This document shows positions 7,255 to 61,673 of a stretch of 64,000 nucleotides of DNA, piece by piece (within the stretch, counting starts at the first letter, position 1; each line of letters opens with the position of its first letter). The position numbers were made by a program, and so were the translations under genes. Source of the stretch: an uncultured Gemmatimonadales bacterium (lineage in GTDB: Bacteria > Gemmatimonadota > Gemmatimonadetes > Gemmatimonadales > GWC2-71-9); NCBI GenBank assembly GCA_963709905.1, contig CAVPYI010000005.1, positions 147,897 through 211,896 of the forward strand, in the 5' to 3' direction. The notes beneath the pieces were generated by a model, which was given only the letters and a program-made list of their open reading frames with translations, ran no database searches and was not told the DNA's origin.

Positions 7255-7546
7255 CCCTTGAGAAGGTTGATGTTCTGGAGGTCCACCGACCGATGATGCC
7301 GGAAGACTGCCAGGATGATCGCCAGTCCGACCGCGGCCTCGGCGGCCGCCACCGTCATGACGAAGAAGACGAAGATCTGGCCGGGCAATCCATAGGCCTG
7401 CGAGAGGGCGATGAACGTCAGGTTCACGGCGTTCAGCATCAGCTCCACGCACATGAAGATCACGATCGCGTTGCGCCGCAGCAGGACGCCCAGGACGCCG
7501 ATGCCGAACAGCACCGCCGACACGCCCAGCGCCGGGCCCACCAGGC

Positions 7547-16233: not shown

Positions 16234-16383
16234 GGCGACTCCGCGGCTCGGCGGTTTGCCGGCTCGGCGACCCACCCTCGTTCACGGCGCCGCCGCGGTT
16301 TCACCTGTCGCACCGGCTGAGTCGCTCTATATTCCGTCCGCGAAACGATGCCGCCAGCCCGAGTCCTCCAGCCGCCGAGCCGA
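16234..16383. repeat. degenerate inverted array of GGCTCGGCG-type octamers in the nuoA/dcd divergent spacer
   Basis: Left arm ggcgactccgcggctcggcggtttgccggctcggcga (16234-16270). Right arm gccgccagcccgagtcctccagccgccgagccga (16350-16383). About 79-nt loop. The element ends 4 nt before the dcd ATG. Confidence 0.5.
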
Positions 16384-27443: not shown

Positions 27444-28508
27444 TCACCCGCCTCGGGTGTGCATTTCCTTCAATGGGTCGCGCCGCAGTTCCTCGAGCTG
27501 GAACAACACGCCCCGGCCCGGACGGGCGGCACGGTCCTCCGCGCCACGGTCGTCCCGCTCAGCCCAGGCCTGGCGGACGAGGCTACCGAGTTCGTCATCG
27601 CTCGCCCCGTCACGCAGGGGCGTCCGCAGATCGAGACCCGCGTCGGAATAGAGGCACAGCAGGAAGTGCCCGTCGGCCGTCAGCCTGGCGCGATCGCAGG
27701 TGCGGCAGAACGGTTCGGTGGTGGAGGCGATGATCCCGAACACCGTGCCATCGGGCAACCGGAACCGGTCGGCCGGCGCTGCGCTCACGGCGTTCTCGGC
27801 CAGCGGCTCGACCCGACCATAGGTTCGCGCCAGCCGTTCCAGCATCTCCCGCCGCGAGACCACGTCGGCCATCCGCCAGCCGGTCGCGCCGCCAACGTCC
27901 ATGTACTCGATGAACCGGACTTCCACGCCATGCGATCGCCCGAACTCGATCAGGTCGACCAGCTCGTCGTCGTTGAAGCCCCGGGTCACCACGGTGTTGA
28001 GCTTGATGACCGTGAAGCCGGCGGCCTTCGCCGCCGTGATGCCGGCCAACACGTCGCCGTGGCGGTGCGACCGGGCCTGTGCCTGCATGCGGTCCGGTTG
28101 GAGGGTGTCGAGGCTGATGGTGACGCGGGTCAGGCCGGCTTGCTGCAGAGTCTCCGCCTGTTCCGAGAGCAGTATCCCGTTCGTGGTGAGGGCCAGGTCG
28201 GCCAGCGCCGGTCGTCCCGCCAGCATGCGCACCAGGGTGGCGAGATCCTGGCGCAGCAACGGCTCGCCACCTGTCAGCCGGAGCCGGCTCACTCCCAGGC
28301 CGGTCAGCACACCGACCAGCCGGTCGATTTCCTCGAACGAGAGAATCGAACTGCGGGGCAGCCAGACGTACTCGTCCTCCGGCATGCAGTAGCGGCATCG
28401 CATGTTGCAGCGATCGGTGACGGAGACGCGCAGGCTGGTGAGCGGTCTGCCGAGGCGGTCAGAGACCGGTGGCTCGGCGGCTCGGCGGCTCGATCCCTCC
28501 TTCATCAT
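27444..28508 (-). CDS. moaA: GTP 3',8-cyclase MoaA (radical SAM)
   Basis: LRVSVTDRCNMRCRYCMP radical-SAM motif and C-terminal CxxCxR..L cluster region. The ATG overlaps the moaE stop (ATGA). Confidence 0.92.
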   Translation of the reverse strand: MMKEGSSRRAAEPPVSDRLGRPLTSLRVSVTDRCNMRCRYCMPEDEYVWLPRSSILSFEEIDRLVGVLTGLGVSRLRLTGGEPLLRQDLATLVRMLAGRPALADLALTTNGILLSEQAETLQQAGLTRVTISLDTLQPDRMQAQARSHRHGDVLAGITAAKAAGFTVIKLNTVVTRGFNDDELVDLIEFGRSHGVEVRFIEYMDVGGATGWRMADVVSRREMLERLARTYGRVEPLAENAVSAAPADRFRLPDGTVFGIIASTTEPFCRTCDRARLTADGHFLLCLYSDAGLDLRTPLRDGASDDELGSLVRQAWAERDDRGAEDRAARPGRGVLFQLEELRRDPLKEMHTRGG

Positions 28509-28981
28509 GGCCCACCCCCTCGCCGCGACACTCCTTCTTCGATGACCACCGAGCCGACCAGCCGCCCAGCCGCCGAGCCGTCTACCCAGGCCACCGATCC
28601 ATCCTCGAAGTGCTCCTTCTTCCAGATCGGCACTCGCCGCTTGGTCTGCTCAATCACATATCGACAGGCTTCGAAGGCCTCGTCCCGGTGGGCTCCCGCC
28701 GCGGCGACACCAACCGCCGTATCACCGACTTCGAGCGTTCCCAGCCGGTGCTGGAACGCGATCCCGACCGGCCAACGACCCTCGGCCTCCGCGACGATGC
28801 GGGCGGCCTCAGCCTCCGCCATCGGCTCGTACGCCGAGTACTCGAGTCGGCGCACTCGGCGCCCCTCGTGGTGGTCCCGCACCAGGCCGAGGAAGGTCGC
28901 GACGCCTCCTCGGTCGGGTGCCGCAGTCGCGGCCACCAGGGTCGCGATATCGATTGGCTCGCGGGTCAGGAAGCGGGACAT
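28505..28981 (-). CDS. moaE: molybdopterin synthase catalytic subunit MoaE
   Basis: 158-aa ORF with GAVATFLG.VRD-like and PIWKKE motifs, located between moaD and moaA. Confidence 0.88.
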   Translation of the reverse strand: MSRFLTREPIDIATLVAATAAPDRGGVATFLGLVRDHHEGRRVRRLEYSAYEPMAEAEAARIVAEAEGRWPVGIAFQHRLGTLEVGDTAVGVAAAGAHRDEAFEACRYVIEQTKRRVPIWKKEHFEDGSVAWVDGSAAGRLVGSVVIEEGVSRRGGGP

Positions 28982-33280: not shown

Positions 33281-33353
33281 CTCGGCGCCTCGGCGACTCG
33301 GCGACTCGGCCGTGCCATCTAGCCGCCGAGCCGCCGAGCCGCCGAGCCGCCGG
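33281..33353. repeat. hairpin element with tandem-octamer arms that fills the gap-pgk spacer
   Basis: (CTCGGCGM)x3.75 at 33281-33310, 11-nt loop, (GCCGCCGR)x4 at 33322-33353. The arms are reverse complements apart from one position per unit. Confidence 0.85.
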
Positions 33354-34516
<1,163 letters not shown>

Positions 34517-34543
34517 CTCCTTGCCGACCGCCGACTCCCCCCC

Positions 34544-36510: not shown

Positions 36511-37184
36511 AGCAGCCGCTCCGCGATTCGCAGGTCTTCCTCCGTGGTGACCTTCAGATTGAACGCCGAGCCGGGCACGATCCGCACAGTGGCGCCGAGG
36601 CGTTCGACCAGCGCCGCATCGTCGGTCGCCGACGCCCCCTCACGCCGGGCCCGTGCATGGGCCTCCTCGAGTAGCCCGCGCGGAAACCCCTGCGGCGTCT
36701 GCGCACGCCAGAGCCGTTCTCTGGGCACCGTCCGCGTCACCCTCCGGTCCGGGTCGCCCTCCTTGAGCGTATCATCGAGCGGCAGCGCCGGAACCGCGCC
36801 TTCGCCCTGCCGTGCCACGGCAATGACCCCGTCGATCGTCGCTCGATCCACGAACGGGCGGGCGGCGTCGTGCACCAGGACGATGCTGCAGGTGGCCGGC
36901 AGGCTGGCGAGACCATGAGCCACCGAATCGCTCCGGGCGGAACCTCCGGCGACCAGGCTCAGCGCTCCGCCCAGCAGTTCGCTCAACCAGGGCGGCGGGC
37001 TGGCGGCGTCGGCCGGCGGCAGCGCGACGACCGTGTGGGCCACCTCCGGATGAGCGGTAAAGGGGCGCAACGCGCGCAGCAACATCGGGACGCCACCCAG
37101 CGGGTAATACTGCTTGAGCACCGCACCGCCGATCCGGGTGCCCTGCCCCGCGGCAACGACCACCACACCTACGTCACGCGGCAA
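36507..37184 (-). CDS. ispD: 2-C-methyl-D-erythritol 4-phosphate cytidylyltransferase
   Basis: VVVAAGQGTRIG...K and VLVHDAARPFV motifs. Confidence 0.92.
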   Translation of the reverse strand: MPRDVGVVVVAAGQGTRIGGAVLKQYYPLGGVPMLLRALRPFTAHPEVAHTVVALPPADAASPPPWLSELLGGALSLVAGGSARSDSVAHGLASLPATCSIVLVHDAARPFVDRATIDGVIAVARQGEGAVPALPLDDTLKEGDPDRRVTRTVPRERLWRAQTPQGFPRGLLEEAHARARREGASATDDAALVERLGATVRIVPGSAFNLKVTTEEDLRIAERLL

Positions 37185-38526
37185 GGGTCGGTACCAGCTG
37201 CTCGACGTGATCGAGCCCCACCAGGGTCAAGCCCTGCACCTGGCCCGTCGTCCGGCCGGACACGAAGACCCGCCGGAACCCGAGCCGCTCGGCCTCCCCC
37301 AGCCGCCGTTCCAGCCCCCCGACGGGCCGAATCTCGCCCCCCAGGCCCAGCTCCCCCAGAAACAGCGCGTCGGGGGGCGAGGGCCGGTTGTGAACGCTCG
37401 AGAGCAGCGCCGCAGCCACCGCCAGATCCGACGCCGGCTCGGTGAGGCGGAGGCCCGCCGTCACCTGCACGAAGACATCGAGATCGGCGAACGCCGTCCC
37501 GCCGCGCCGTTCGAGCACCGCCAGCAGCACCGCCAGCCGTTTCTGCTCCAGTCCGGCCGCCACCCGCTGGGGGGTTCCGTAGCCGCTCCGCGCCGCCAGG
37601 GCCTGGATCTCGACCAGCACCGGACGGGTCCCCTCCATCAGCGCCGTCACGGCGCTACCCGCGGTACCGGCGGATCGCGCGGCCAGGAACACCGCCGACG
37701 GATTCGGGACCGGGACAAGACCGTGCCCGGTCATCGTGAAGACGCCCAGCTCGTCAACCGAACCGAATCGGTTCTTGGTGGCCCGGAGCAGGCGGTGGTC
37801 GAGGCTCGCTTCCCCCTCGAAGTACAGCACGGTATCGACGATGTGCTCGAGGGTCTTGGGGCCGGCGATGCCGCCGCCCTTGGTGACGTGCCCCACGACG
37901 ATGACCGCCGAGCCGGTCTGCTTGGCGAATCGCATGAGCCGGGCGGCACATTCACGCACTTGCCCCACGTTGCCCGGGGCGCCTTCGAGCAGCTCCGTGT
38001 ACACCGTCTGAATCGAATCGAGGATCAGGAGATCGGCGCCCAGCGCCTGGGCCGCTTCGAGAATGGTCTCCAGCCGGGTCTCGCCCAGCACGTGCACCGG
38101 CCCGGCGTCCTCCTCCAGCCGCTCCGAGCGGAGCCGCAGCTGCTCCGGCGATTCCTCCCCGCTGGCGTAGAGCACCTTCCGGCCCTGCCCCTCCAGACGG
38201 GCGGCGACCTGCAGCAGGAGGGTGGATTTGCCGATGCCGGGTTCGCCGCCCACCAACGTCATCGAGCCGGGGACCAGACCGGACCCGAGCACGAAGTCCA
38301 GCTCGGGGAGCCCCGTGCTCCAGCGGACCAGCCGCGACGGCGCGATGTCCTGCAGGCGGTTCGGCGGCGCGACCGCATGGCGGCCCGCCCGCGGCTTGCC
38401 GGCCACCGCGACGACGGGTTCCTCCGCCACGCTGTTCCAGGCCCCGCACGCCTCACACTTCCCCACCCACTTGGGATGATCGTGGCCGCACTCGGTGCAG
38501 CGGTAGACGGAGCGGGATCTAGCCAT
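37174..38526 (-). CDS. radA: DNA repair protein RadA/Sms
   Basis: N-terminal zinc finger YRCTECG...W.GKC..CG.WN, Walker A GGEPGIGKSTL, the KNRFG motif and a Lon-like C-terminal domain. Confidence 0.96.
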   Translation of the reverse strand: MARSRSVYRCTECGHDHPKWVGKCEACGAWNSVAEEPVVAVAGKPRAGRHAVAPPNRLQDIAPSRLVRWSTGLPELDFVLGSGLVPGSMTLVGGEPGIGKSTLLLQVAARLEGQGRKVLYASGEESPEQLRLRSERLEEDAGPVHVLGETRLETILEAAQALGADLLILDSIQTVYTELLEGAPGNVGQVRECAARLMRFAKQTGSAVIVVGHVTKGGGIAGPKTLEHIVDTVLYFEGEASLDHRLLRATKNRFGSVDELGVFTMTGHGLVPVPNPSAVFLAARSAGTAGSAVTALMEGTRPVLVEIQALAARSGYGTPQRVAAGLEQKRLAVLLAVLERRGGTAFADLDVFVQVTAGLRLTEPASDLAVAAALLSSVHNRPSPPDALFLGELGLGGEIRPVGGLERRLGEAERLGFRRVFVSGRTTGQVQGLTLVGLDHVEQLVPTLAA

Positions 38527-38657
38527 CGGCGGCTCGGCGGCTCGGCGGCTCGGCGGCTCGACCGGTCAAGACCGGAGCAGGAGAGCCGCGGACCCCTGGG
38601 CCACGCAATCCGCGGCGGCGTCTTCCAGCCGCCGAGCCGCCGAACCGCCGAGCCGCC
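38527..38657. repeat. hairpin element with tandem-octamer arms that fills the entire dnaB-radA spacer
   Basis: (GGCGGCTC)x4 at 38527-38560 and gccgccgagccgccgaaccgccgagccgcc at 38628-38657 are reverse complements with one mismatch. About 67-nt loop containing an inner CCGCGGA/TCCGCGG stem. Confidence 0.9.
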
Positions 38658-40112
38658 CTACCCATGCTCGGGTTCCTCCCGGTCACTCAGACTGGCAAAC
38701 CGGGTGAACTGCTTGTGGAAGTACAGCTCGAGGTGCCCGGTCGGGCCGTTGCGGTGCTTGGCCACGATCAGCTCGGCCTTGCCCTCGTTGCTGTTGCCCT
38801 CCTTGTCCACCGGCTCGTACATCACGGGTCGATGGATGAACAGCACCAGGTCGGCATCCTGTTCGATGGCCCCGGAATCGCGCAGATCGGACAGAATCGG
38901 CTTGCGCTCCCCGCCGCGCTGCTCCGACGCGCGCGAGAGCTGAGACAGCGCGATCACCGGGACCTCGAGTTCGCGGGCGAGCGCCTTGAGCGAGCGCGAA
39001 ATGTCGGAGATCTCCTGGACCCGGTTGTCGGCGTAGGCCGGACTCCGCATGAGCTGGAGGTAGTCGACGATCACCAGCTGGACGTCGTTCTCCAGCCGCA
39101 GGCGCCGGGCCTTGGAGCGCATCTCGAGCAGGCTGATCGAGGGGCTGTCGTCGACCCAGATCGGGCAGGTCGAGAGCACCCCGGCGGCCCGCGCCAGCAT
39201 CGTGAAATCGGTGTCCGACAGGGTTCCCCGGCGGACCCGCTGGCTGTCCACCCGGGCTTCGGCGCAAAGCAGCCGCTGGACCAGCGATTCCTTCGACATC
39301 TCCATCGAGAAGATCGCCACCCCCGCCCCGGTCTCCGCCGCGTGCGCCGCGATATTGAGGCACAGGGCGGTCTTTCCCATCGAGGGCCGAGCCGCCACGA
39401 TCACCAGGTCGGAGCCCTGGAACCCGGTGGTGATCTCGTCCAAGTCTTTGAATCCACTGGGGACCCCGGTAACCTGTTTCCCCTGCTGATGGAGCTTTTC
39501 GATGCGCTCCATCGTCGGCCAGAGCATCTCCTTGAGTCGGCTGAAGTCTTCGGCCTTCCGGTACTGGGAAATCTGGAAGATCCGGGATTCGGCTTCATCC
39601 AGCAGCTGGCTGGCCGCCAGACTGCCTTCATAGGCCCGCGACACGATCGCGGTCGACGCCTCGATGAGATTGCGCAGGACCGCCTTCTCGCGGACGATGC
39701 CGGCATGGGCATCGAGATTCGCGGCGGTCACGGCCGCATCGATCAGCTCGGCGAGATACACCTCCCCGCCGGCGGCCTCCAGTTCTCCCTTGCGGTCCAG
39801 CTCGTCGCGCAGGGTGATGTGGTCGATCACCACCCGCCGCTCGGTCAGCCGCCGCATGGCCCGGAACAGCCGGCGATGGCCCTCGCGGTAGAACAGCGCA
39901 TCGTCCAACAGCTCCACGGCGCGGAGCGCGGCGTCCTGATCGAGGAGCATGGCGCCGAGCACCGCCTGCTCGGCCTCATTGCTCCACGGGGCGCCCCGCA
40001 CGGGGGCCACCGCGGGAGCGGCGGAATCGGTCTCGGAGAAAGTGCCGGGCGAGAACTGGGTCATTGCCGTGGATGGTGCCGGGAAGGAGGCCGAATCACC
40101 GGGGCGGCGCAA
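38658..40112 (-). CDS. dnaB: replicative DNA helicase DnaB
   Basis: N-terminal P.S.EAEQAVLGAML motif, Walker A ARPSMGKTA, IVDYLQLM and LSQLSR motifs. Confidence 0.96.
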   Translation of the reverse strand: MRRPGDSASFPAPSTAMTQFSPGTFSETDSAAPAVAPVRGAPWSNEAEQAVLGAMLLDQDAALRAVELLDDALFYREGHRRLFRAMRRLTERRVVIDHITLRDELDRKGELEAAGGEVYLAELIDAAVTAANLDAHAGIVREKAVLRNLIEASTAIVSRAYEGSLAASQLLDEAESRIFQISQYRKAEDFSRLKEMLWPTMERIEKLHQQGKQVTGVPSGFKDLDEITTGFQGSDLVIVAARPSMGKTALCLNIAAHAAETGAGVAIFSMEMSKESLVQRLLCAEARVDSQRVRRGTLSDTDFTMLARAAGVLSTCPIWVDDSPSISLLEMRSKARRLRLENDVQLVIVDYLQLMRSPAYADNRVQEISDISRSLKALARELEVPVIALSQLSRASEQRGGERKPILSDLRDSGAIEQDADLVLFIHRPVMYEPVDKEGNSNEGKAELIVAKHRNGPTGHLELYFHKQFTRFASLSDREEPEHG

Positions 40113-40348
40113 CGAGGATCTCGCGCGTGCGGGTGATCATCAACAGCGAAACTCGGTGGAAGCCGGCGGCGCTGTCAAGCACTTGCCGGAGCTCCGGCCG
40201 CATCGCGCGGGTCGCGGCAGTTTCCCCACAATTACCCACAGCAATTCAGACTCTCCACCTGCTCCACATTCCGTCCGTTTCCGCGGGGGCCGCCCCGGGA
40301 CCCGGTCGATTTCGGTAGCCGATTTGTGACGTGGATAACCCTGGCCGG

Positions 40349-41248
40349 CTACTGGTCGAGTAACTGCCGGGCGATCCGGACATCATCCCAGGTCGGCTGC
40401 TTCCAGTTCGGATTGCGCAGTAACGCCGCCGGATGATAGGTGACGACCAGCGGCGTGGTCCCGTACCGGTGCACCCGGCCGCGCAGCTCGCCCAGGCTCT
40501 TCTTCACGCCCAGCAGCCATTCGGCGGCCGTGCCGCCCAGCGCCAGCAGCACTCGGGGACGGACCAGGGCGATCTGTCGGTGCAGATACGGAAGGCAGGC
40601 GAGTGCTTCGTCAGGCAGGGGCTTCCGATTCTGCGGCGGCCGGCACTTGACGATATTGGCGATGAACACCGTTTCCCGCGGACACTCGATCGACGCCAGG
40701 ATCTGATCGAGGAGTTGCCCGGCCGCTCCCACGAACGGCCGTCCGGTTTCGTCTTCCTTGGCTCCGGGCCCTTCCCCGACACACATCAGGCGGGCCGTGG
40801 GGTTTCCTTCCCCAGGCACCGCCAGGTTCCGCCCCTCGCACAGCCGGCACTTGCGGCAGCCGCGGACCAGTTCGTCTATCTGATCCAGCGAATCCGACCT
40901 CCAGACCTCGTCACCGAGCAATCCGACTTCGGGCGGAGCGACCACCAGTCCGGGACCGGGGATCGGCGGCGGGTCTTTGCGCCACTTGGCCTGGCGGCTC
41001 GGCGGCTCACCCTGGCGGCTCGGCGGCTCGGCGGCTGGTGACTCGGCGGCCTGTCCGCTGATCTCCGGGTCGTCCACCTTCACCGGCCCTGACTCCCCCA
41101 CCGGAACACCAGCCGCCGAGTCGCCGAGCCGCCGGGCCGCCGAGTCATCTGCCGCCGAGTCGCCGAGCGACCGAGCCGCCGAGCGATACACCTCGGGCCC
41201 ACCCAGTTCGGCTTGCTGCCGCAGGTAGCGGTCGCGTCTATCGTCCAA
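40349..41248 (-). CDS. uracil-DNA glycosylase, family 4, with a ~110-aa repeat-derived N-terminal extension (start uncertain)
   Basis: Catalytic core CRKCRLCEGR...GEGNP.ARLMCVGEGPGAKED..G.PFVG.AG. The maximal ORF starts at 41248 and overlaps the coaBC end. In-frame GTG 40945 or TTG 40921 would give a canonical-length enzyme. Confidence 0.8.
   Translation of the reverse strand: MDDRRDRYLRQQAELGGPEVYRSAARSLGDSAADDSAARRLGDSAAGVPVGESGPVKVDDPEISGQAAESPAAEPPSRQGEPPSRQAKWRKDPPPIPGPGLVVAPPEVGLLGDEVWRSDSLDQIDELVRGCRKCRLCEGRNLAVPGEGNPTARLMCVGEGPGAKEDETGRPFVGAAGQLLDQILASIECPRETVFIANIVKCRPPQNRKPLPDEALACLPYLHRQIALVRPRVLLALGGTAAEWLLGVKKSLGELRGRVHRYGTTPLVVTYHPAALLRNPNWKQPTWDDVRIARQLLDQ
40993..41184. repeat. 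inverted arrays of GGCGGCTC-type octamers overlapping the 5' part of the UDG ORF
   Basis: Left arm 40993-41050 (ggcggctcggcggctc...ggcggctcggcggctcggcggct). Right arm 41111-41184 (gccgccgagtcgccgagccgcc...gccgccgagtcgccgagcgaccgagccgccgagc). About 60-nt loop. Confidence 0.8.
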
Positions 41249-44302: not shown

Positions 44303-44400
44303 GGCGTCAAGGCGTCAAGGCGTCAAGGCGTCAAGGCGTCAAGGCGTCGGCCACCGGGAAACTAAGCAAACGACGCCTCGACGCCTCAACGTCTCACCGC
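44303..44400. repeat. hairpin element with tandem-octamer arms (GGCGTCAA type) between the TonB-type receptor gene and yicC
   Basis: (GGCGTCAA)x5 + GGCGTCGG at 44303-44350, 20-nt loop, cgacgcctcgacgcctcaacgtctcaccgc at 44371-44400. The right arm abuts the receptor stop codon. Confidence 0.88.
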
Positions 44401-46272
44401 CTAGTTCGCAAACTCCCACCGCACTCCGAACGTGCTCCCGAAATTGAGCAACCGGAAACCGGGCACATAGCTCTTGCGGGTGGCCTGGAGGTTGTAGCGC
44501 TGCCAGTACAACAGGAAGCTGTCCAGGCGAATCTCGATCTCGGTGCGCCAGAACGAGGCCCCGTCGAGCGCGATCGGCAGGCCGAGCGTGTCACGCCCGA
44601 TGATGCCGTCGCCCCAGGTCTCGTACGAGAGCTGGGCCTTGAAATCGAAGATCCCGCTCGGGAAGGTGCGCCAGAATTTGGAGCGGATCGTCCCGCTGGT
44701 GAGGGAGTGGGTGGCGGGGAGGCCGTCTGGCGTACTGGCTCCGGTCGGGTCGCTGACCCAGCCCTCGAAGGTGAGCCACTTCCTGGGCGCCAGCCGCCAG
44801 TTCACCGTCACCCAATCGGTGCGCGGGGCGGCCCCCAGAGCCGCCACGCTCGGCGTAAAGGACCGAAACGCGAACGGCCGGAACGCGTCGGTCCGCGCGA
44901 AACCCACCTCGACCGCTGCCCACGGTCGCTCCCAGCGCGCGCTGGCCTGCCAGTCTGTGATCGATTGGGCGCGATCGGCGATGATCGCCGGCGCCGCGAC
45001 CATTGACCCCGATCGCAGCGTGCCTTGCAGCTCGAGCCCGAGCAGCAGAGACAGCCCGACCCGGCCGGCTACCCAGTCGCTGTGGCGGCCGCCATCGTGC
45101 GTACGGTAGCCCGCCTCGGCTCCGAAACTGAGCGCTGCGACCGGCGTCCACCCCGCCGTACTGAGCAAGTCCCAGGGCGTGATCCGCGACCGACTGAGCC
45201 CGCGGATAGTCAGGCCGACGGTCGGGCTCCGCCACCCGAGGATGAGGCCGCCCTGCCGGACCTCGTCGTCCACCCCGGTGCCCTTCCAGGTGGTCAGACC
45301 CGCCAGCCCATCGACCCGGAATCCGAGATTGCCGGGCCGACTTCGCCAGAACAGCCGGAGCTGGGCATCGTTCCGCTTTCCCGTCGTCGCCAATTCCAGG
45401 GTGTCGGGGTTCTCGACGAACGCCTTGCGGTCGGGGCTGGAGCTGATCAGCTGGGCCTGTACGCCGAATCGGTCGCTCGGAACGAAGCCGAGCTGCAGCC
45501 AGATGTTGGTGACGTCGAAATCACTGGCCGTTCCCGTGGCGGTCGGAGCGACCATCCGTTCGCCGCCGAGGCCGAAACCCAGTCCGGAAGGGAAGCGCCG
45601 TTCCAGGGCCCCGACGTACCGGGCGATCTCCTTGTCCCCGGATGAGACTCCGACCCGCGACGAGGGCGCCTGTCGCTCGTGCCGTCGGGTGAACAGGTGG
45701 ACCCGGAGCAGCTCCGGCCAGCGCTCGATTTCGATGCGATCGAACAGACTCACCGAAAAGAAGGACGGGTCCACGCCGATTGAATCGGGACCGATCGGCA
45801 GATAGGGGATGCCGTCGACCAGATATTCAACCCCGGTCGCCCCGCGAGCGCGGAAGTTCGGATACTCGGTCCGGCCGAGCCATCCGCCGCGCCAGAGATA
45901 GACCCCGGGCACCCGTTGGAGCAGGTCGGACACGGTCTCCGCCATGACCCATTCCAGGGAATCCCGGTCGAGTACGATCCGGCTCATCGGCGAGCGCGGG
46001 CCTTCCACTCCGACCAGGGGCATCGCAGACAGGCGGATGGCGTTCGCCTTCTGGGCCTCCAGATAGCGTTCGGTGGTGTTGACGGTGTCGCGGGGCAGGG
46101 AGTCGGGAGGCAGCGAGTCGTAGGGAATCTGAGCCGCCACCCCCTGGGCAACGAGGATGAGCCCAGCGGCGGCGGTGAGCAGTGAACGGTGAGTGGTGCG
46201 CCGTGAATGAACGGACGATGGAGCAGTGTCCCTACCCCAGTGCCACCGGCGCTTCAGAGGCGACCCGCTCAC
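44401..46272 (-). CDS. TonB-dependent-receptor-like outer-membrane protein (plug plus beta-barrel); start uncertain
   Basis: Plug-domain motifs (ETVSDLLQRVPGVYL, GATGVEYLVDGIPY, IEIERWPE), a long strand-rich barrel and a C-terminal aromatic ...VRWEFAN. The maximal ORF (to 46422) overlaps the pepA 3' end, so in-frame GTG 46272 is used. Confidence 0.75.
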   Translation of the reverse strand: MSGSPLKRRWHWGRDTAPSSVHSRRTTHRSLLTAAAGLILVAQGVAAQIPYDSLPPDSLPRDTVNTTERYLEAQKANAIRLSAMPLVGVEGPRSPMSRIVLDRDSLEWVMAETVSDLLQRVPGVYLWRGGWLGRTEYPNFRARGATGVEYLVDGIPYLPIGPDSIGVDPSFFSVSLFDRIEIERWPELLRVHLFTRRHERQAPSSRVGVSSGDKEIARYVGALERRFPSGLGFGLGGERMVAPTATGTASDFDVTNIWLQLGFVPSDRFGVQAQLISSSPDRKAFVENPDTLELATTGKRNDAQLRLFWRSRPGNLGFRVDGLAGLTTWKGTGVDDEVRQGGLILGWRSPTVGLTIRGLSRSRITPWDLLSTAGWTPVAALSFGAEAGYRTHDGGRHSDWVAGRVGLSLLLGLELQGTLRSGSMVAAPAIIADRAQSITDWQASARWERPWAAVEVGFARTDAFRPFAFRSFTPSVAALGAAPRTDWVTVNWRLAPRKWLTFEGWVSDPTGASTPDGLPATHSLTSGTIRSKFWRTFPSGIFDFKAQLSYETWGDGIIGRDTLGLPIALDGASFWRTEIEIRLDSFLLYWQRYNLQATRKSYVPGFRLLNFGSTFGVRWEFAN

Positions 46273-46292
46273 CGCTAACCGCTCACCGCTTA
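46174..46292. repeat. hairpin element with tandem-heptamer arms (GGTGAGC / CCGCTCA type) over the 5' end of the receptor gene
   Basis: ggtgagc agtgaac ggtgagt ggtgcgc cgtgaat (46174-46208) faces ccgctca ccgctaa ccgctca ccgctta (46265-46292). About 80 percent complementarity by eye. Confidence 0.75.
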
Positions 46293-47783
46293 CCCCAACA
46301 CCCCGGCGCGCCCCAGCACAAACTCGGCGAACAGTCGCGTACAGACCCCGGTAGGCCCCTTCACGCGGGTCGGGTCCTCGCGGTCGCTGTAGGCCGTACC
46401 GGCGATATCGATGTGAGCCCACGGAAACCCGCTGACGAACTCCCGCAGGAACCAGCCCGCCGAGATGCTCCCGGCCGGCCGACCGCCCGAGTTCTTGACG
46501 TCCGCGATCTCCGACTTGATCAGGTCGCGGTACTCATCCCACATCGGCAGCGGCCAGACCCGTTCCCCCGCCCGGTCGCCGGCCCGACGCAGCTCCTCGA
46601 CCAGGCCGTCGTCGCTTCCCATCACGCCGGACGCGGCATGTCCCAGGGCGACCACCACCGCTCCGGTCAGGGTCGCGGCATCGACCACGCAGGCCGGCTC
46701 GTACCGCCGGGCATACGACAGGGCGTCGCACAGAATCAGCCGCCCTTCCGCGTCGGTGTTGATGATCTCGATCGTCTTGCCCAGGTGGCTCCGGACGACA
46801 TCGCCGGGCTTGACCGCCTTGCCGCTCGGCATGTTTTCGACCGCGGGCACCAGCCCGATGACCCGGAGCTTCGGCTTCAGTCGCCCCAGCATCTCGAACG
46901 TGCCGAGCACCGCGGCCGCGCCCGACATGTCGTATTTCATGTCCTCCATCTTGTCGGAAGGCTTGATGGAGATCCCCCCGGTATCGAAGGTGACGCCTTT
47001 TCCCACCAGCACGATCGGCGCGCCGGCAGTTCCCTCGTACTCGAGCACGATGAACTTCGGCTCTTCCGCGCTGCCCTGCCCCACCGCCAGCAGGCCACCC
47101 ATTTTTTCCGCCCGAATGGCCGGGAGATCGAGGACGGTCCCCTTCAGGCCATGGCGGCGCGCCAGCTCACCGGCCTGGGCCGCCAGATAGCTCGGGGTGC
47201 ATGTGTTTCCCGGGAGCACCTGGAGATTCCGGGCCAAGCTCTGGCCCGCGGCGACCGCCGCGCCCAGCTCGTGTCCGGCCCGCACGTCAGCGGTGTCCGC
47301 GGGGGCCAGGACCTCGGCCTGCACCAGCGGTGGTTTGATATCCTCGGGCGGTGCCTTGAGCTCCGCGTAATGCCACTGCCCGTAGGCCAGCCCCTCGGCG
47401 ATCACCTGCCCCTGTTCCCGCGCCGTCACCGGGCCGCGTGCCTCCGGCGTCAGAAAGAATCCCATCGCGGAAGCGCCAACCGTTCGTGCCCGTTTGGCCG
47501 CCGCTGCCGCCGCGCGGCGGAGGGTGTTGCGGCCGAACTCCTCCGGCTTGCCCAGCCCGAGGAGCAGCACCCGGGTCGCGGGCCCCGGCACGTGCAGCAG
47601 CGCCTGTTCATCCTTCTTGCCGGCGAAGTCGCCCGAGCCGTACAGCCGACCGATGGCGCCGGCGGTCTGGGCATCGACCGGAGTGAGTGAGGCAGGCATC
47701 GGGCCCATGGATACCGCCAGCGCAAGCAGTGGCGTGGCATAGCCGGCGGGCTGGGCGGAACTCACCGATGTGGTGAAGGGCAT
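46290..47783 (-). CDS. pepA: leucyl aminopeptidase (M17)
   Basis: VGKGVTFDTGGISIKP, NTDAEGRL.L.D and DIAGTA motifs. Confidence 0.95.
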   Translation of the reverse strand: MPFTTSVSSAQPAGYATPLLALAVSMGPMPASLTPVDAQTAGAIGRLYGSGDFAGKKDEQALLHVPGPATRVLLLGLGKPEEFGRNTLRRAAAAAAKRARTVGASAMGFFLTPEARGPVTAREQGQVIAEGLAYGQWHYAELKAPPEDIKPPLVQAEVLAPADTADVRAGHELGAAVAAGQSLARNLQVLPGNTCTPSYLAAQAGELARRHGLKGTVLDLPAIRAEKMGGLLAVGQGSAEEPKFIVLEYEGTAGAPIVLVGKGVTFDTGGISIKPSDKMEDMKYDMSGAAAVLGTFEMLGRLKPKLRVIGLVPAVENMPSGKAVKPGDVVRSHLGKTIEIINTDAEGRLILCDALSYARRYEPACVVDAATLTGAVVVALGHAASGVMGSDDGLVEELRRAGDRAGERVWPLPMWDEYRDLIKSEIADVKNSGGRPAGSISAGWFLREFVSGFPWAHIDIAGTAYSDREDPTRVKGPTGVCTRLFAEFVLGRAGVLG

Positions 47784-50110: not shown

Positions 50111-50193
50111 TGCCCGAGGCGAGAGTCGAACTCGCACGGGGTTGCCCCCGGCGGATTTTGAGTCCGCTGCGTCTGCCATTCCGCCACTCGGGC
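50111..50193 (-). tRNA. tRNA-Leu (anticodon CAA)
   Basis: Manual cloverleaf of GCCCGAGTGGCGGAATGGCAGACGCAGCGGACTCAAAATCCGCCGGGGGCAACCCCGTGCGAGTTCGACTCTCGCCTCGGGCA. It has a 7-bp acceptor stem, anticodon stem GCGGA/TCCGC with loop CTCAAAA, a long variable arm, and T-arm GCGAG-TTCGACT-CTCGC. CCA is not encoded. Confidence 0.9.
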
Positions 50194-61540: not shown

Positions 61541-61673
61541 AATCAGCGTCAGCCGTCAGCCATCAGCAACCAGCTATCAGTCATCAGCGATCAGGCCGGC
61601 GGTGATGCGAATGCCTGACTGCGACGGATCTGGCGCCCGAAAGCTGACAACTGACGGCTGATGGCTGACGGCT
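61541..61673. repeat. hairpin element with tandem-heptamer arms (TCAGC core) in the thiolase-GDPD spacer
   Basis: Eight heptamers aatcagc gtcagcc gtcagcc atcagca accagct atcagtc atcagcg atcaggc (61541-61596) face gctgaca actgacg gctgatg gctgacg (61643-61670) across a ~46-nt loop. Confidence 0.85.

Follow-up and report, generated by a model that had tools for sequence, protein, structure and literature searches.

The spacer between dnaB and radA in an uncultured Gemmatimonadales bacterium (assembly GCA_963709905.1), lying in a stretch of 64,000 nucleotides of contig CAVPYI010000005.1 that is referred to here as the window, is 131 nt long and is occupied end to end by a single hairpin, each arm of which is an array of short tandem repeats complementary to the array in the other arm. 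Such paired-array hairpins are abundant in some Gemmatimonadales lineages, where they lie at gene junctions. Comparison of orthologous junctions indicates that they are inherited vertically in place and that their arms are kept homogeneous and complementary as the repeat unit changes; they have been gained at junctions whose stop and start codons formerly overlapped or touched, and clean loss can occur as well. With about even confidence, the dnaB-radA spacer is regarded as a locus-bound paired-array hairpin, a self-homogenizing structural repeat that is tolerated in operons, and not as a terminator or a mobile-element copy. Elements of this kind probably have no dedicated function at most loci.

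That this spacer forms a hairpin with complementary octamer-array arms had been proposed from the sequence alone, and the proposal is borne out by inspection of the sequence, by Tandem Repeats Finder (TRF), by an inverted-repeat scan and by folding. The flanking open reading frames (ORFs), DnaB (Pfam DnaB and DnaB_C) and RadA (by homologues), are both on the minus strand, as are the parts of the element given here in the mRNA sense. The 5' arm (38624-38657), GGCGGCTC GGCGGTTC GGCGGCTC GGCGGCTGGA, begins 1 base past the dnaB stop codon (TAG, CTA on the plus strand, 38658-38660, minus strand), which is at the 5' foot of the stem, while the 3' arm (38528-38561), (GAGCCGCC)x4, stops 1 base ahead of the radA start codon (ATG, CAT on the plus strand, 38524-38526, minus strand) at the 3' foot. 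Both arms were located by TRF, the inverted-repeat scan and the fold. The 62-nt loop between them (38562-38623) contains two small internal stems evident in the sequence and the fold, one at 38561-38575 and the other the CCGCGGA/TCCGCGG stem that had been anticipated within the loop (~38586-38592 with ~38609-38615). Since arms and loop reach from the dnaB stop to the radA start, the 131-nt element is the entire spacer. Read on the plus strand, it consists of (GGCGGCTC)x4 at 38528-38559 and the complementary array CCAGCCGCCGAGCCGCCGAACCGCCGAGCCGCC at 38625-38657. TRF gave 4.4 copies with 100% matches for one array and 3.9 copies with 91% matches for the other, and the inverted-repeat scan gave arms of 34 nt that are 94% complementary and 62 nt apart.

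When folded, the sense strand of the element yields an uninterrupted 31-bp stem and a predicted energy of -111.3 kcal/mol, compared with -75.0 +/- 4.6 kcal/mol for 200 dinucleotide shuffles (z = -7.95), and the antisense strand reaches -101.2 kcal/mol (z = -7.39). Shuffled controls, which might have given similar structures, thus leave both strands far more stable than expected (z about -8). The sense stem would qualify structurally as an RNase III site, taken as near-perfect double-stranded RNA of ~20 bp or more. No Shine-Dalgarno sequence lies between the stem and the radA ATG, and scans of 38000-39200 for promoters and terminators returned no promoter-like or terminator-like site and no U-tract. 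Rfam has no match at the element, its sole match in the window being a tRNA at 50111-50193 (minus strand).

Homologues of RadA assign the window to an uncultured Gemmatimonadales lineage. Related elements were sought in comparison loci (denoted by L-numbers), namely 80 RadA-bearing metagenome loci and 120 genome loci matching GGCGGNNC x3, together with 13 further loci from the window's 90%-identity RadA cluster. Paired arrays were detected by combining TRF with local alignment of the arms, and the reversed sequence served as control. This procedure replaced an earlier 24-nt ungapped partner search around genome-wide pattern hits, which did not discriminate because the GC-rich background already reaches 14-18 of 24 positions; a control that is complemented and not reversed is invalid for GGCGGCTC because complementing this unit yields the opposite arm in rotated form. 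In the window, 13 of the 16 arrays with period 7 or 8 were found to have a partner in reverse complement no more than 300 nt away, against 1 in the reversed-sequence control, and the RadA loci gave 66 paired arrays of 120 with periods 7 or 8, against 2 in the control. Pairing was seen for none of 42 arrays of period 6, 9 or 10 in the window and the RadA loci, and 740 kb of Streptomyces and other high-GC taxa showed no excess (4 paired arrays vs 3 in the control). In about 860 kb of Gemmatimonadota DNA there are 47 non-redundant paired arrays, with period 8 in 26 and period 7 in 19, arms of ~32 nt and a median loop of 51 nt. It had been a concern that such arrays might be assembled from low-complexity reads, but the elements recur in independent assemblies from JGI, ENA and NCBI and hence are not assembly artefacts. 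The architecture is also present in L138 and L195, metagenome-assembled genomes (MAGs) labelled MFD that we take to be long-read assemblies, the sequencing technology being our assumption.

What these elements have in common is their design and not their sequence, as had been suggested for a multi-locus family. Among 46 elements there are 41 distinct consensus units (18 7-mers in 19 elements and 23 8-mers in 27 elements), and yet the consensus arms of each element pair with one another, Watson-Crick complementarity being 96% for the 7-mers and 91% for the 8-mers, compared with 32% and 42% (maxima 51% and 57%) when partners are shuffled between elements. In an all-against-all BLAST of 35 loops, substantial similarity was confined to the near-identical strains L007 and L071, and two other loop pairs share one 12-nt exact match each at chance level (E 0.005-0.009). 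With no sequence common to the loops, the family is unlike repetitive extragenic palindromic (REP) sequences, bacterial interspersed mosaic elements (BIMEs) or MITEs (miniature transposable elements with inverted repeats), as had also been claimed, and a shared mobile core was rejected on the same BLAST result. The arms differ in length by at least one unit in 17 of the 47 elements. They are also polarized, with the G-rich arm first in 37 elements and a weak reversal in 7 (p = 5e-6), and this is the same on both strands; strongly C-first elements are found only inside the radA ORF. Avoidance of Rho and its rut sites was considered as the origin of this polarity and is not supported, the unpaired intergenic arrays being G-rich on the sense strand in 6 cases and C-rich in 6.

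The original prediction also drew attention to the only mismatch between the focal arms, a plus-strand A (38644) opposite C, which becomes a G-U pair on the minus strand and was taken as a sign of selection on RNA structure. The pair is indeed G-U on the sense strand, but the conclusion drawn from it does not stand. Across the family, transitions produce 30 sense and 32 antisense G-U pairs, and the closest orthologue of the focal element, in L001/L212, folds better as antisense (-128.9 kcal/mol) than as sense (-115.6 kcal/mol); hence the wobble carries no weight. Strand-specific wobble was accordingly dropped as evidence for RNA selection, sense and antisense fold energies being mixed as well.

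The history of the element can be followed in the relatives because the gene order over 20 kb is conserved (pepA, a TonB-dependent receptor gene designated tbdr, yicC, coaBC, udg, dnaB, radA, ispD, aroE, a comF-like gene, gap and pgk, and then moaE and moaA), which makes a junction-by-junction comparison possible. In most relatives the dnaB-radA spacer is 0-2 nt, the genes abutting or overlapping, and gap and pgk share a GTGA stop/start overlap in 18 of 22 relatives. The RadA tree implies a minimum of three separate fillings of the dnaB-radA junction, the first in the clade that comprises the window, L001 and L002, another in that of L011, L013, L025, L016 and L032, and one more in L035; in every case no more than 0-10 nt separate the feet of the stem from the stop codon and the start codon. 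The units at this junction differ. The window and L209 both have GGCGGCTC/GAGCCGCC, while L212, which is identical to L001, has GGCGGTTC/GAACCGCC, a C-G to U-A change relative to the window in most units of both arms. In L002 the 5' arm is GGCGGACG and the 3' arm, reverse-complemented, is GGCGGACC, with one mismatched position per unit. Between the window, L209 and L212, no alignment of the loops is possible in spite of 81-87% nucleotide identity in radA. Loss is seen in L201-L208, where the spacer is 8 nt (TAG AGACGTCC ATG); these loci are sister to the element-bearing L209 (radA 91.5% identical at the nucleotide level), and L212 and the window, both of which bear the element, fall outside this pair. 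Spacers of 11-30 nt in other relatives look like single leftover units, as with GCCGGTCCCGC in L004 compared with the L002 arm GCCGGTCCGCC.

Other junctions of the cluster tell a similar story. At pepA|tbdr, tbdr|yicC, coaBC|udg and ispD..aroE, related units fill the junction in lineages that have just 74-83% RadA identity, with orthologous units such as GCGGTGA, GACGTGA and GTGAAGA at pepA|tbdr, GGCGTCAA, GGCGACAA and GGAGTCA at tbdr|yicC, and GCGGGGAA and GCGGGACA at ispD..aroE. Unit identity at the best rotation averages 0.73 for orthologous and 0.61 for non-orthologous junctions (p = 5.5e-6, with pairs that are not independent). That the stem is kept while the loops vary is compatible with selection for pairing or with matching of the arms at the DNA level. 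Density varies by lineage, from 7 elements in 20 kb of the window and 7 in 21 kb of L002 to none in L003, L028, L037, L047 and L065. The ispD..aroE element (L027 4465-4615; L036 2847-2985; L046 9046-9180) is placed between conserved flanks, TTGGCACC(A/G)TGA(G/A)GG upstream and GTATTATCTTCTGACAATG downstream, which resemble the -35-like and -10-like hexamers of the promoter of a near-leaderless gene split by the hairpin.

In the window itself all nine elements are at gene junctions, 7 of the 10 junctions of the syntenic cluster are occupied and four unit types are used, GGCGGCTC being present at five junctions of this genome. Eight sites besides dnaB-radA had been listed, and all are real paired arrays, with the qualification that the one near 16234 is merely degenerate: this marginal member lies between the divergent nuoA and dcd (16244-16382, plus strand; inverted-repeat scan, Pfam and fold), has 24-nt arms that are 79% complementary and folds no better than shuffles (z = -1.0). 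Fold z-scores for others, by position, are -3.2 (28467), -6.7 (33275), -5.8 (34383), -6.3 (44297), -5.2 (46168) and -6.0 (61541). On the minus strand, the moaE|moaA junction has a member with unit GGCGGCTC (28467-28588; inverted-repeat scan, Pfam and fold), and gap|pgk is filled by a member in which arms of GGCGGCTC and GAGTCGCC units enclose a loop of 10 nt (33281-33352; TRF and fold), this junction holding 72-83 nt of paired array. The comF-like|gap member has the 7-nt unit (G/T)ATCAGC (34381-34533; TRF, inverted-repeat scan, Pfam and fold), and that between coaBC and udg, the uracil-DNA glycosylase gene, has long degenerate GGCGGCTC arms (40988-41184; TRF, inverted-repeat scan and Pfam) in which the irregularities of one arm are mirrored in the other. 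The tbdr|yicC member (44303-44402; TRF, Pfam and fold) has arms of unequal length, GGCGTCAA x6 against GACGCCTC x3, and that at pepA|tbdr (46172-46294; TRF, Pfam and fold), with the 7-nt unit GCGGTGA, is orthologous to elements of L006, L002 and L021. A last member, thiolase|GDPD with the 7-nt unit TCAGCC(A/G), is on the plus strand (61541-61673; TRF, inverted-repeat scan, Pfam and fold). At 33281 and 44303 an identical one-base mismatch is found in every unit, and in L021, too, irregularities are mirrored between the arms. The udg|dnaB spacer (40113-40348, ~236 nt) is without a repeat element, and many relatives show overlapping alignments of udg and dnaB there.

Arrays of this kind are also translated. 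In the moaE|moaA element of the window, the G-rich arm is part of the C-terminal tail of MoaE (GSAAGRLVGS...), the C-rich arm is an N-terminal extension of MoaA (SSRRAAEPP), and the loop holds two AAGGAG motifs as well as the ATGA stop/start overlap. The variable linker of RadA (residues 37-66, after the zinc ribbon) is written as a paired array in several lineages. This linker is a hot spot for 8-nt repeats, translated as low-complexity sequence rich in Gly, Arg, Ala and Pro; repeats occur there in L019, L026, L039/L043/L044, L048 and L122, L201-L208 carry (AGCCGCCG)x4 in the linker codons, and unpaired arrays are present in ~14 further loci. A conserved hairpin that preceded the arrays in the linker was considered and rejected, since the mean z is -0.37 compared with -0.19 and -0.02 for controls and only the array lineages are structured. 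Together, the translated moaE|moaA arms and the RadA-linker arrays indicate that elements arise wherever they are tolerated. They also disturb gene calling. In L209-L211 (P0122, 493 aa) the radA ORF reads through the repeat and gains 43 residues, in L201-L208 (P0121, 420 aa) a downstream start is chosen and 30 residues are lost, and the window ORF 37174-38565 is among the automatic radA calls that misplace the start around the element. Gene callers are thus misled, RadA being annotated with 420, 450/452 or 493 residues according to how the element is treated.

As to the probable origin of the elements, replication slippage would expand and homogenize each arm separately, and the differences in arm length in 17 of 47 elements, together with the per-unit mismatches at 33281 and 44303, point to independent slippage in each arm. 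The arms would then be re-matched by templated correction across the hairpin (template switching of the quasipalindrome type), by purging of unpaired variants, or by both, and the mirrored irregularities of 40988-41184 and L021 fit such re-matching. In quasipalindrome correction, as in the Ripley model and later work in E. coli, intramolecular template switching reportedly makes one of the arms in an imperfect inverted repeat conform to the other, the reported cases being point mutations and short templated mutations of reporter genes. This is a known route to arm matching at the DNA level, although upkeep of whole arrays over evolutionary time would go beyond its described scope. In a polycistronic mRNA, the arms may pair as a stem some 25-35 bp long and rich in GC, which would take the insert out of the linear path and bring the upstream stop and the downstream start side by side. 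Because the stem folds the insert away, an insertion could survive within operon junctions that were previously coupled. Duplexes of this length with near-perfect pairing would be expected to be substrates of RNase III.

Several other explanations of the element have to be weighed against this one. The first is that the stem is a selected RNA module, either a site of processing or stabilization by way of RNase III between the cistrons or a device that couples translation of radA to that of dnaB, the repeat structure being merely the way in which the stem evolves. We take this possibility seriously but consider it unlikely. It accounts well for junctions that are shared over 74-83% RadA identity with unit sequence and period kept while loops drift, for stem feet that in every dnaB-radA case adjoin the stop and start codons, and for the focal element, where the sense strand has the G-U and folds better by 10 kcal/mol; the mismatch repeated in each unit at 33281 and 44303 likewise gives G-U on the sense strand. 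Yet the family as a whole has no strand asymmetry, as the wobble counts show, and antisense is the better-folding strand of the L001/L212 orthologue and of several further elements. Most relatives do without any spacer at these junctions and a sister lineage has lost the element outright, density is uneven (7 within 20 kb for the window and L002 vs none in the five loci named above), and some arms are part of coding sequence and would be melted by ribosomes. That the hairpins act instead as DNA, through G-quadruplexes (or i-motifs on the C-rich strand) or protein-binding arrays affecting replication or transcription, as proposed for Xanthomonas, appears improbable. The G-arm-first order on both strands (37 vs 7) matches the convergent orientation in Xanthomonas, and 13 of the 47 elements have at least four tracts of three or more G in an arm. 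The focal unit GGCGGCTC, however, is 8 nt long with no G run longer than GG, many units (GATCAGC, GAGTACC and GCCTATA among them) are unable to form a G-quadruplex, so large a number of different units (41) cannot serve one sequence-specific protein, and arm complementarity, which this model does not require, is nevertheless maintained. Paired-array elements are not generally G-quadruplex elements.

A mobile origin, in which a MITE-like or REP-like element has terminal inverted repeats built of short tandem repeats, is very improbable. Lineage-specific bursts, the presence of GGCGGCTC at five junctions of the window genome and in arrays of other Gemmatimonadales MAGs, and a true REP-like palindrome within the loops of some relatives all speak for it, but no target-site duplication is visible when filled and empty sites are compared, one copy's loop bears no relation to another's, each locus tends to have a unit of its own and orthologous positions show vertical inheritance, from which it follows that the element is not mobile. 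The REP-like motif is moreover absent from the window, and a Pfam scan confined to the 17 ORFs flanking paired-array elements found no transposase. REP sequences are accompanied by RAYT, a transposase of the IS200/IS605-like kind. As a driver of the family, the REP-like palindrome CATCCCGAGCG.AGCGAGGGATC was rejected, being absent from the window at up to 3 mismatches and present in 6 of 200 loci. In relatives, a REP-like palindrome GTCATCCCGAGCG(N)AGCGAGGGATCT and its inverse recur, often inside a paired-array loop (L013 1457-1528; L016 61-78; L021 16986-17003; L046 4285-4302; L050 1-18; L165 6020-6037), and the pepA|tbdr spacer of L047 has the REP-like variant GTCACCCTGAGCGAAGCGAAGGGGACC. 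Hardly any credence, finally, can be given to the idea that these are intrinsic terminators of a high-GC organism that dispenses with U-tracts. High-GC bacteria do use long terminator stems without U-tracts, and very stable GC-rich hairpins do stand here right behind stop codons. The focal stem, however, is followed directly by the radA ATG and by no U-tract and receives no terminator-like call, orthologous genes at gap|pgk and dnaB|radA overlap by 1-4 nt, the moaE|moaA arms are within both ORFs with an ATGA overlap in the loop, and loops of 50-110 nt, such as the focal one of 62 nt, are atypical. The missing U-tract, the translationally coupled junctions in relatives and the arms inside ORFs together exclude an intrinsic terminator.

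The tolerated, self-homogenizing repeat remains the favored explanation, and several points weigh against it. The template switching, the RNA folding in vivo and the RNase III cleavage that it envisages are putative. Conservation of positions and units over deep divergence, with loops that cannot be aligned, would also be expected of a selected functional stem. The strong G-arm-first polarity (37 vs 7, p = 5e-6) is not predicted, and the source of loops of 50-110 nt at junctions that formerly overlapped is not explained. In addition, the presence of GGCGGCTC at five junctions looks like spread of a unit between loci beyond growth in place; in L002 and L006 the units at coaBC|udg and dnaB|radA are different ones, and gap|pgk and moaE|moaA have no element (of the five junctions, all but nuoA|dcd were compared). 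A more far-reaching proposal, rather speculative and in our judgment improbable as a whole, though not remotely so, is that Gemmatimonadota and at least one Phycisphaerae genome possess a general hairpin-repeat system, locus-bound and self-homogenizing, with intramolecular arm templating, a role in operon punctuation and a polarity rule shared with Xanthomonas.

The Phycisphaerae MAG L086 (JBDKRA010000029.1) has the paired-array design outside Gemmatimonadota at 620-770 and 7395-7453. The first is a nested hairpin with outer 9-mer arms (CGCTGAGGN x3) and inner 8-mer arms (NTGGAATA x3), and the second consists of AGTTGTG x4 against CACAACT. Long unpaired arrays of at least 15 units of GGCGGCTC, GGCGGAAC or GGCGGACC are present in other genomes, including L178 (7573-7692, a Chloroflexia MAG), L185 (3695-3854, Streptomyces) and the Gemmatimonadota loci L099, L100 and L200. 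No partner arm was seen for the arrays in Streptomyces and other phyla.

The original prediction knew of no described family with paired complementary arrays and named the short tandemly repeated repetitive (STRR) sequences, heptamers of heterocystous cyanobacteria, as the closest phenomenon. STRR and the Nostoc repeat GGGGA(C/T)T are intergenic tandem arrays whose units measure ~7 nt, a genome having several types of them, and are described mainly as single direct arrays. The intergenic position, the ~7-nt units and the multiple unit types are thus shared with the present elements, which differ in being inverted pairs with other unit sequences, in Gemmatimonadales and not in cyanobacteria, and with a period of 8 in the focal case. 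In Nostoc, just a handful of paired arrays were noted by Rehm et al. (2015, PMC4692102), and the TAACTGA repeats of Beggiatoa are direct arrays and not pairs (PMC4679880). Xanthomonas offers a stronger comparison, and its GGGAATC pairs show that the architecture as such had already been described. A Xanthomonas genome contains 70-75 convergent inverted pairs among about 185 GGGAATC arrays (Rehm et al., 2015, PLoS One, PMC4692102). In X. campestris and X. axonopodis, ~90% of them are intergenic, mainly between co-directional genes near the upstream ORF; they most often have ~4 units, vary in length and sequence between close species at conserved positions, and have no function found, having been chosen and studied for their potential to form G-quadruplexes (PMC4692102). 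As in Xanthomonas, two short arrays are close together here, one per strand, convergent and with the G-rich array first, and the window elements occupy the same intergenic niche between co-directional genes. Xanthomonas, however, has essentially one 7-nt unit genome-wide (GGGANTN), compared with at least 4 units in one genome and at least 41 in the clade, of 7 or 8 nt, in the elements described here; most of the latter units are unable to form a canonical G-quadruplex and the focal arms have no runs of three G, operon junctions are filled from end to end, arms may encode protein, and the phylum is different. No GGGAATC array was found in any fetched locus, including two that are related to Xanthomonadaceae. 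The paired-array architecture is hence known from Xanthomonas, and its multi-unit, junction-filling and sometimes coding form in Gemmatimonadota is a new variant, no description of such elements in this phylum having been found in a literature search.

Like REP and BIME sequences, the elements are intergenic, are found within operons and would form hairpins in mRNA (REP hairpins can stabilize upstream segments), but REP sequences have a consensus that is common to hundreds of copies and linked to RAYT, while no arm or loop is common to different loci here. MITEs are recognized by terminal inverted repeats, target-site duplications and a conserved core; the elements have no duplications and unrelated loops. 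The mycobacterial interspersed repetitive units (MIRUs) are direct tandem repeats of 40-100 bp with short ORFs in intercistronic gaps, and resemble the present elements in preserving the relation of stop and start codons in operon gaps, but not in their structure, which is here one of inverted 7-8-nt arrays.

In some Gemmatimonadales, these elements make up a large share of intergenic space, with 7 of the 10 junctions of a 20-kb housekeeping cluster occupied. They rewrite junctions that are translationally coupled in relatives and can add coding sequence to protein tails and linkers. A single junction with differing units is a natural dataset on how the arms of a hairpin stay matched during turnover, and the paired repeats of Xanthomonas become one case of a broader strand-symmetric design. 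In the more far-reaching proposal, intramolecular arm templating would amount to concerted evolution across a hairpin, which is undescribed at evolutionary scale, the elements would in addition act as RNase III or translation-coupling modules, and the G-first polarity would reflect a mechanistic rule. Should cleavage of the stems or bridging of translation by them prove real, the stems would constitute a common layer of control of operon expression in an abundant and little-studied soil phylum.

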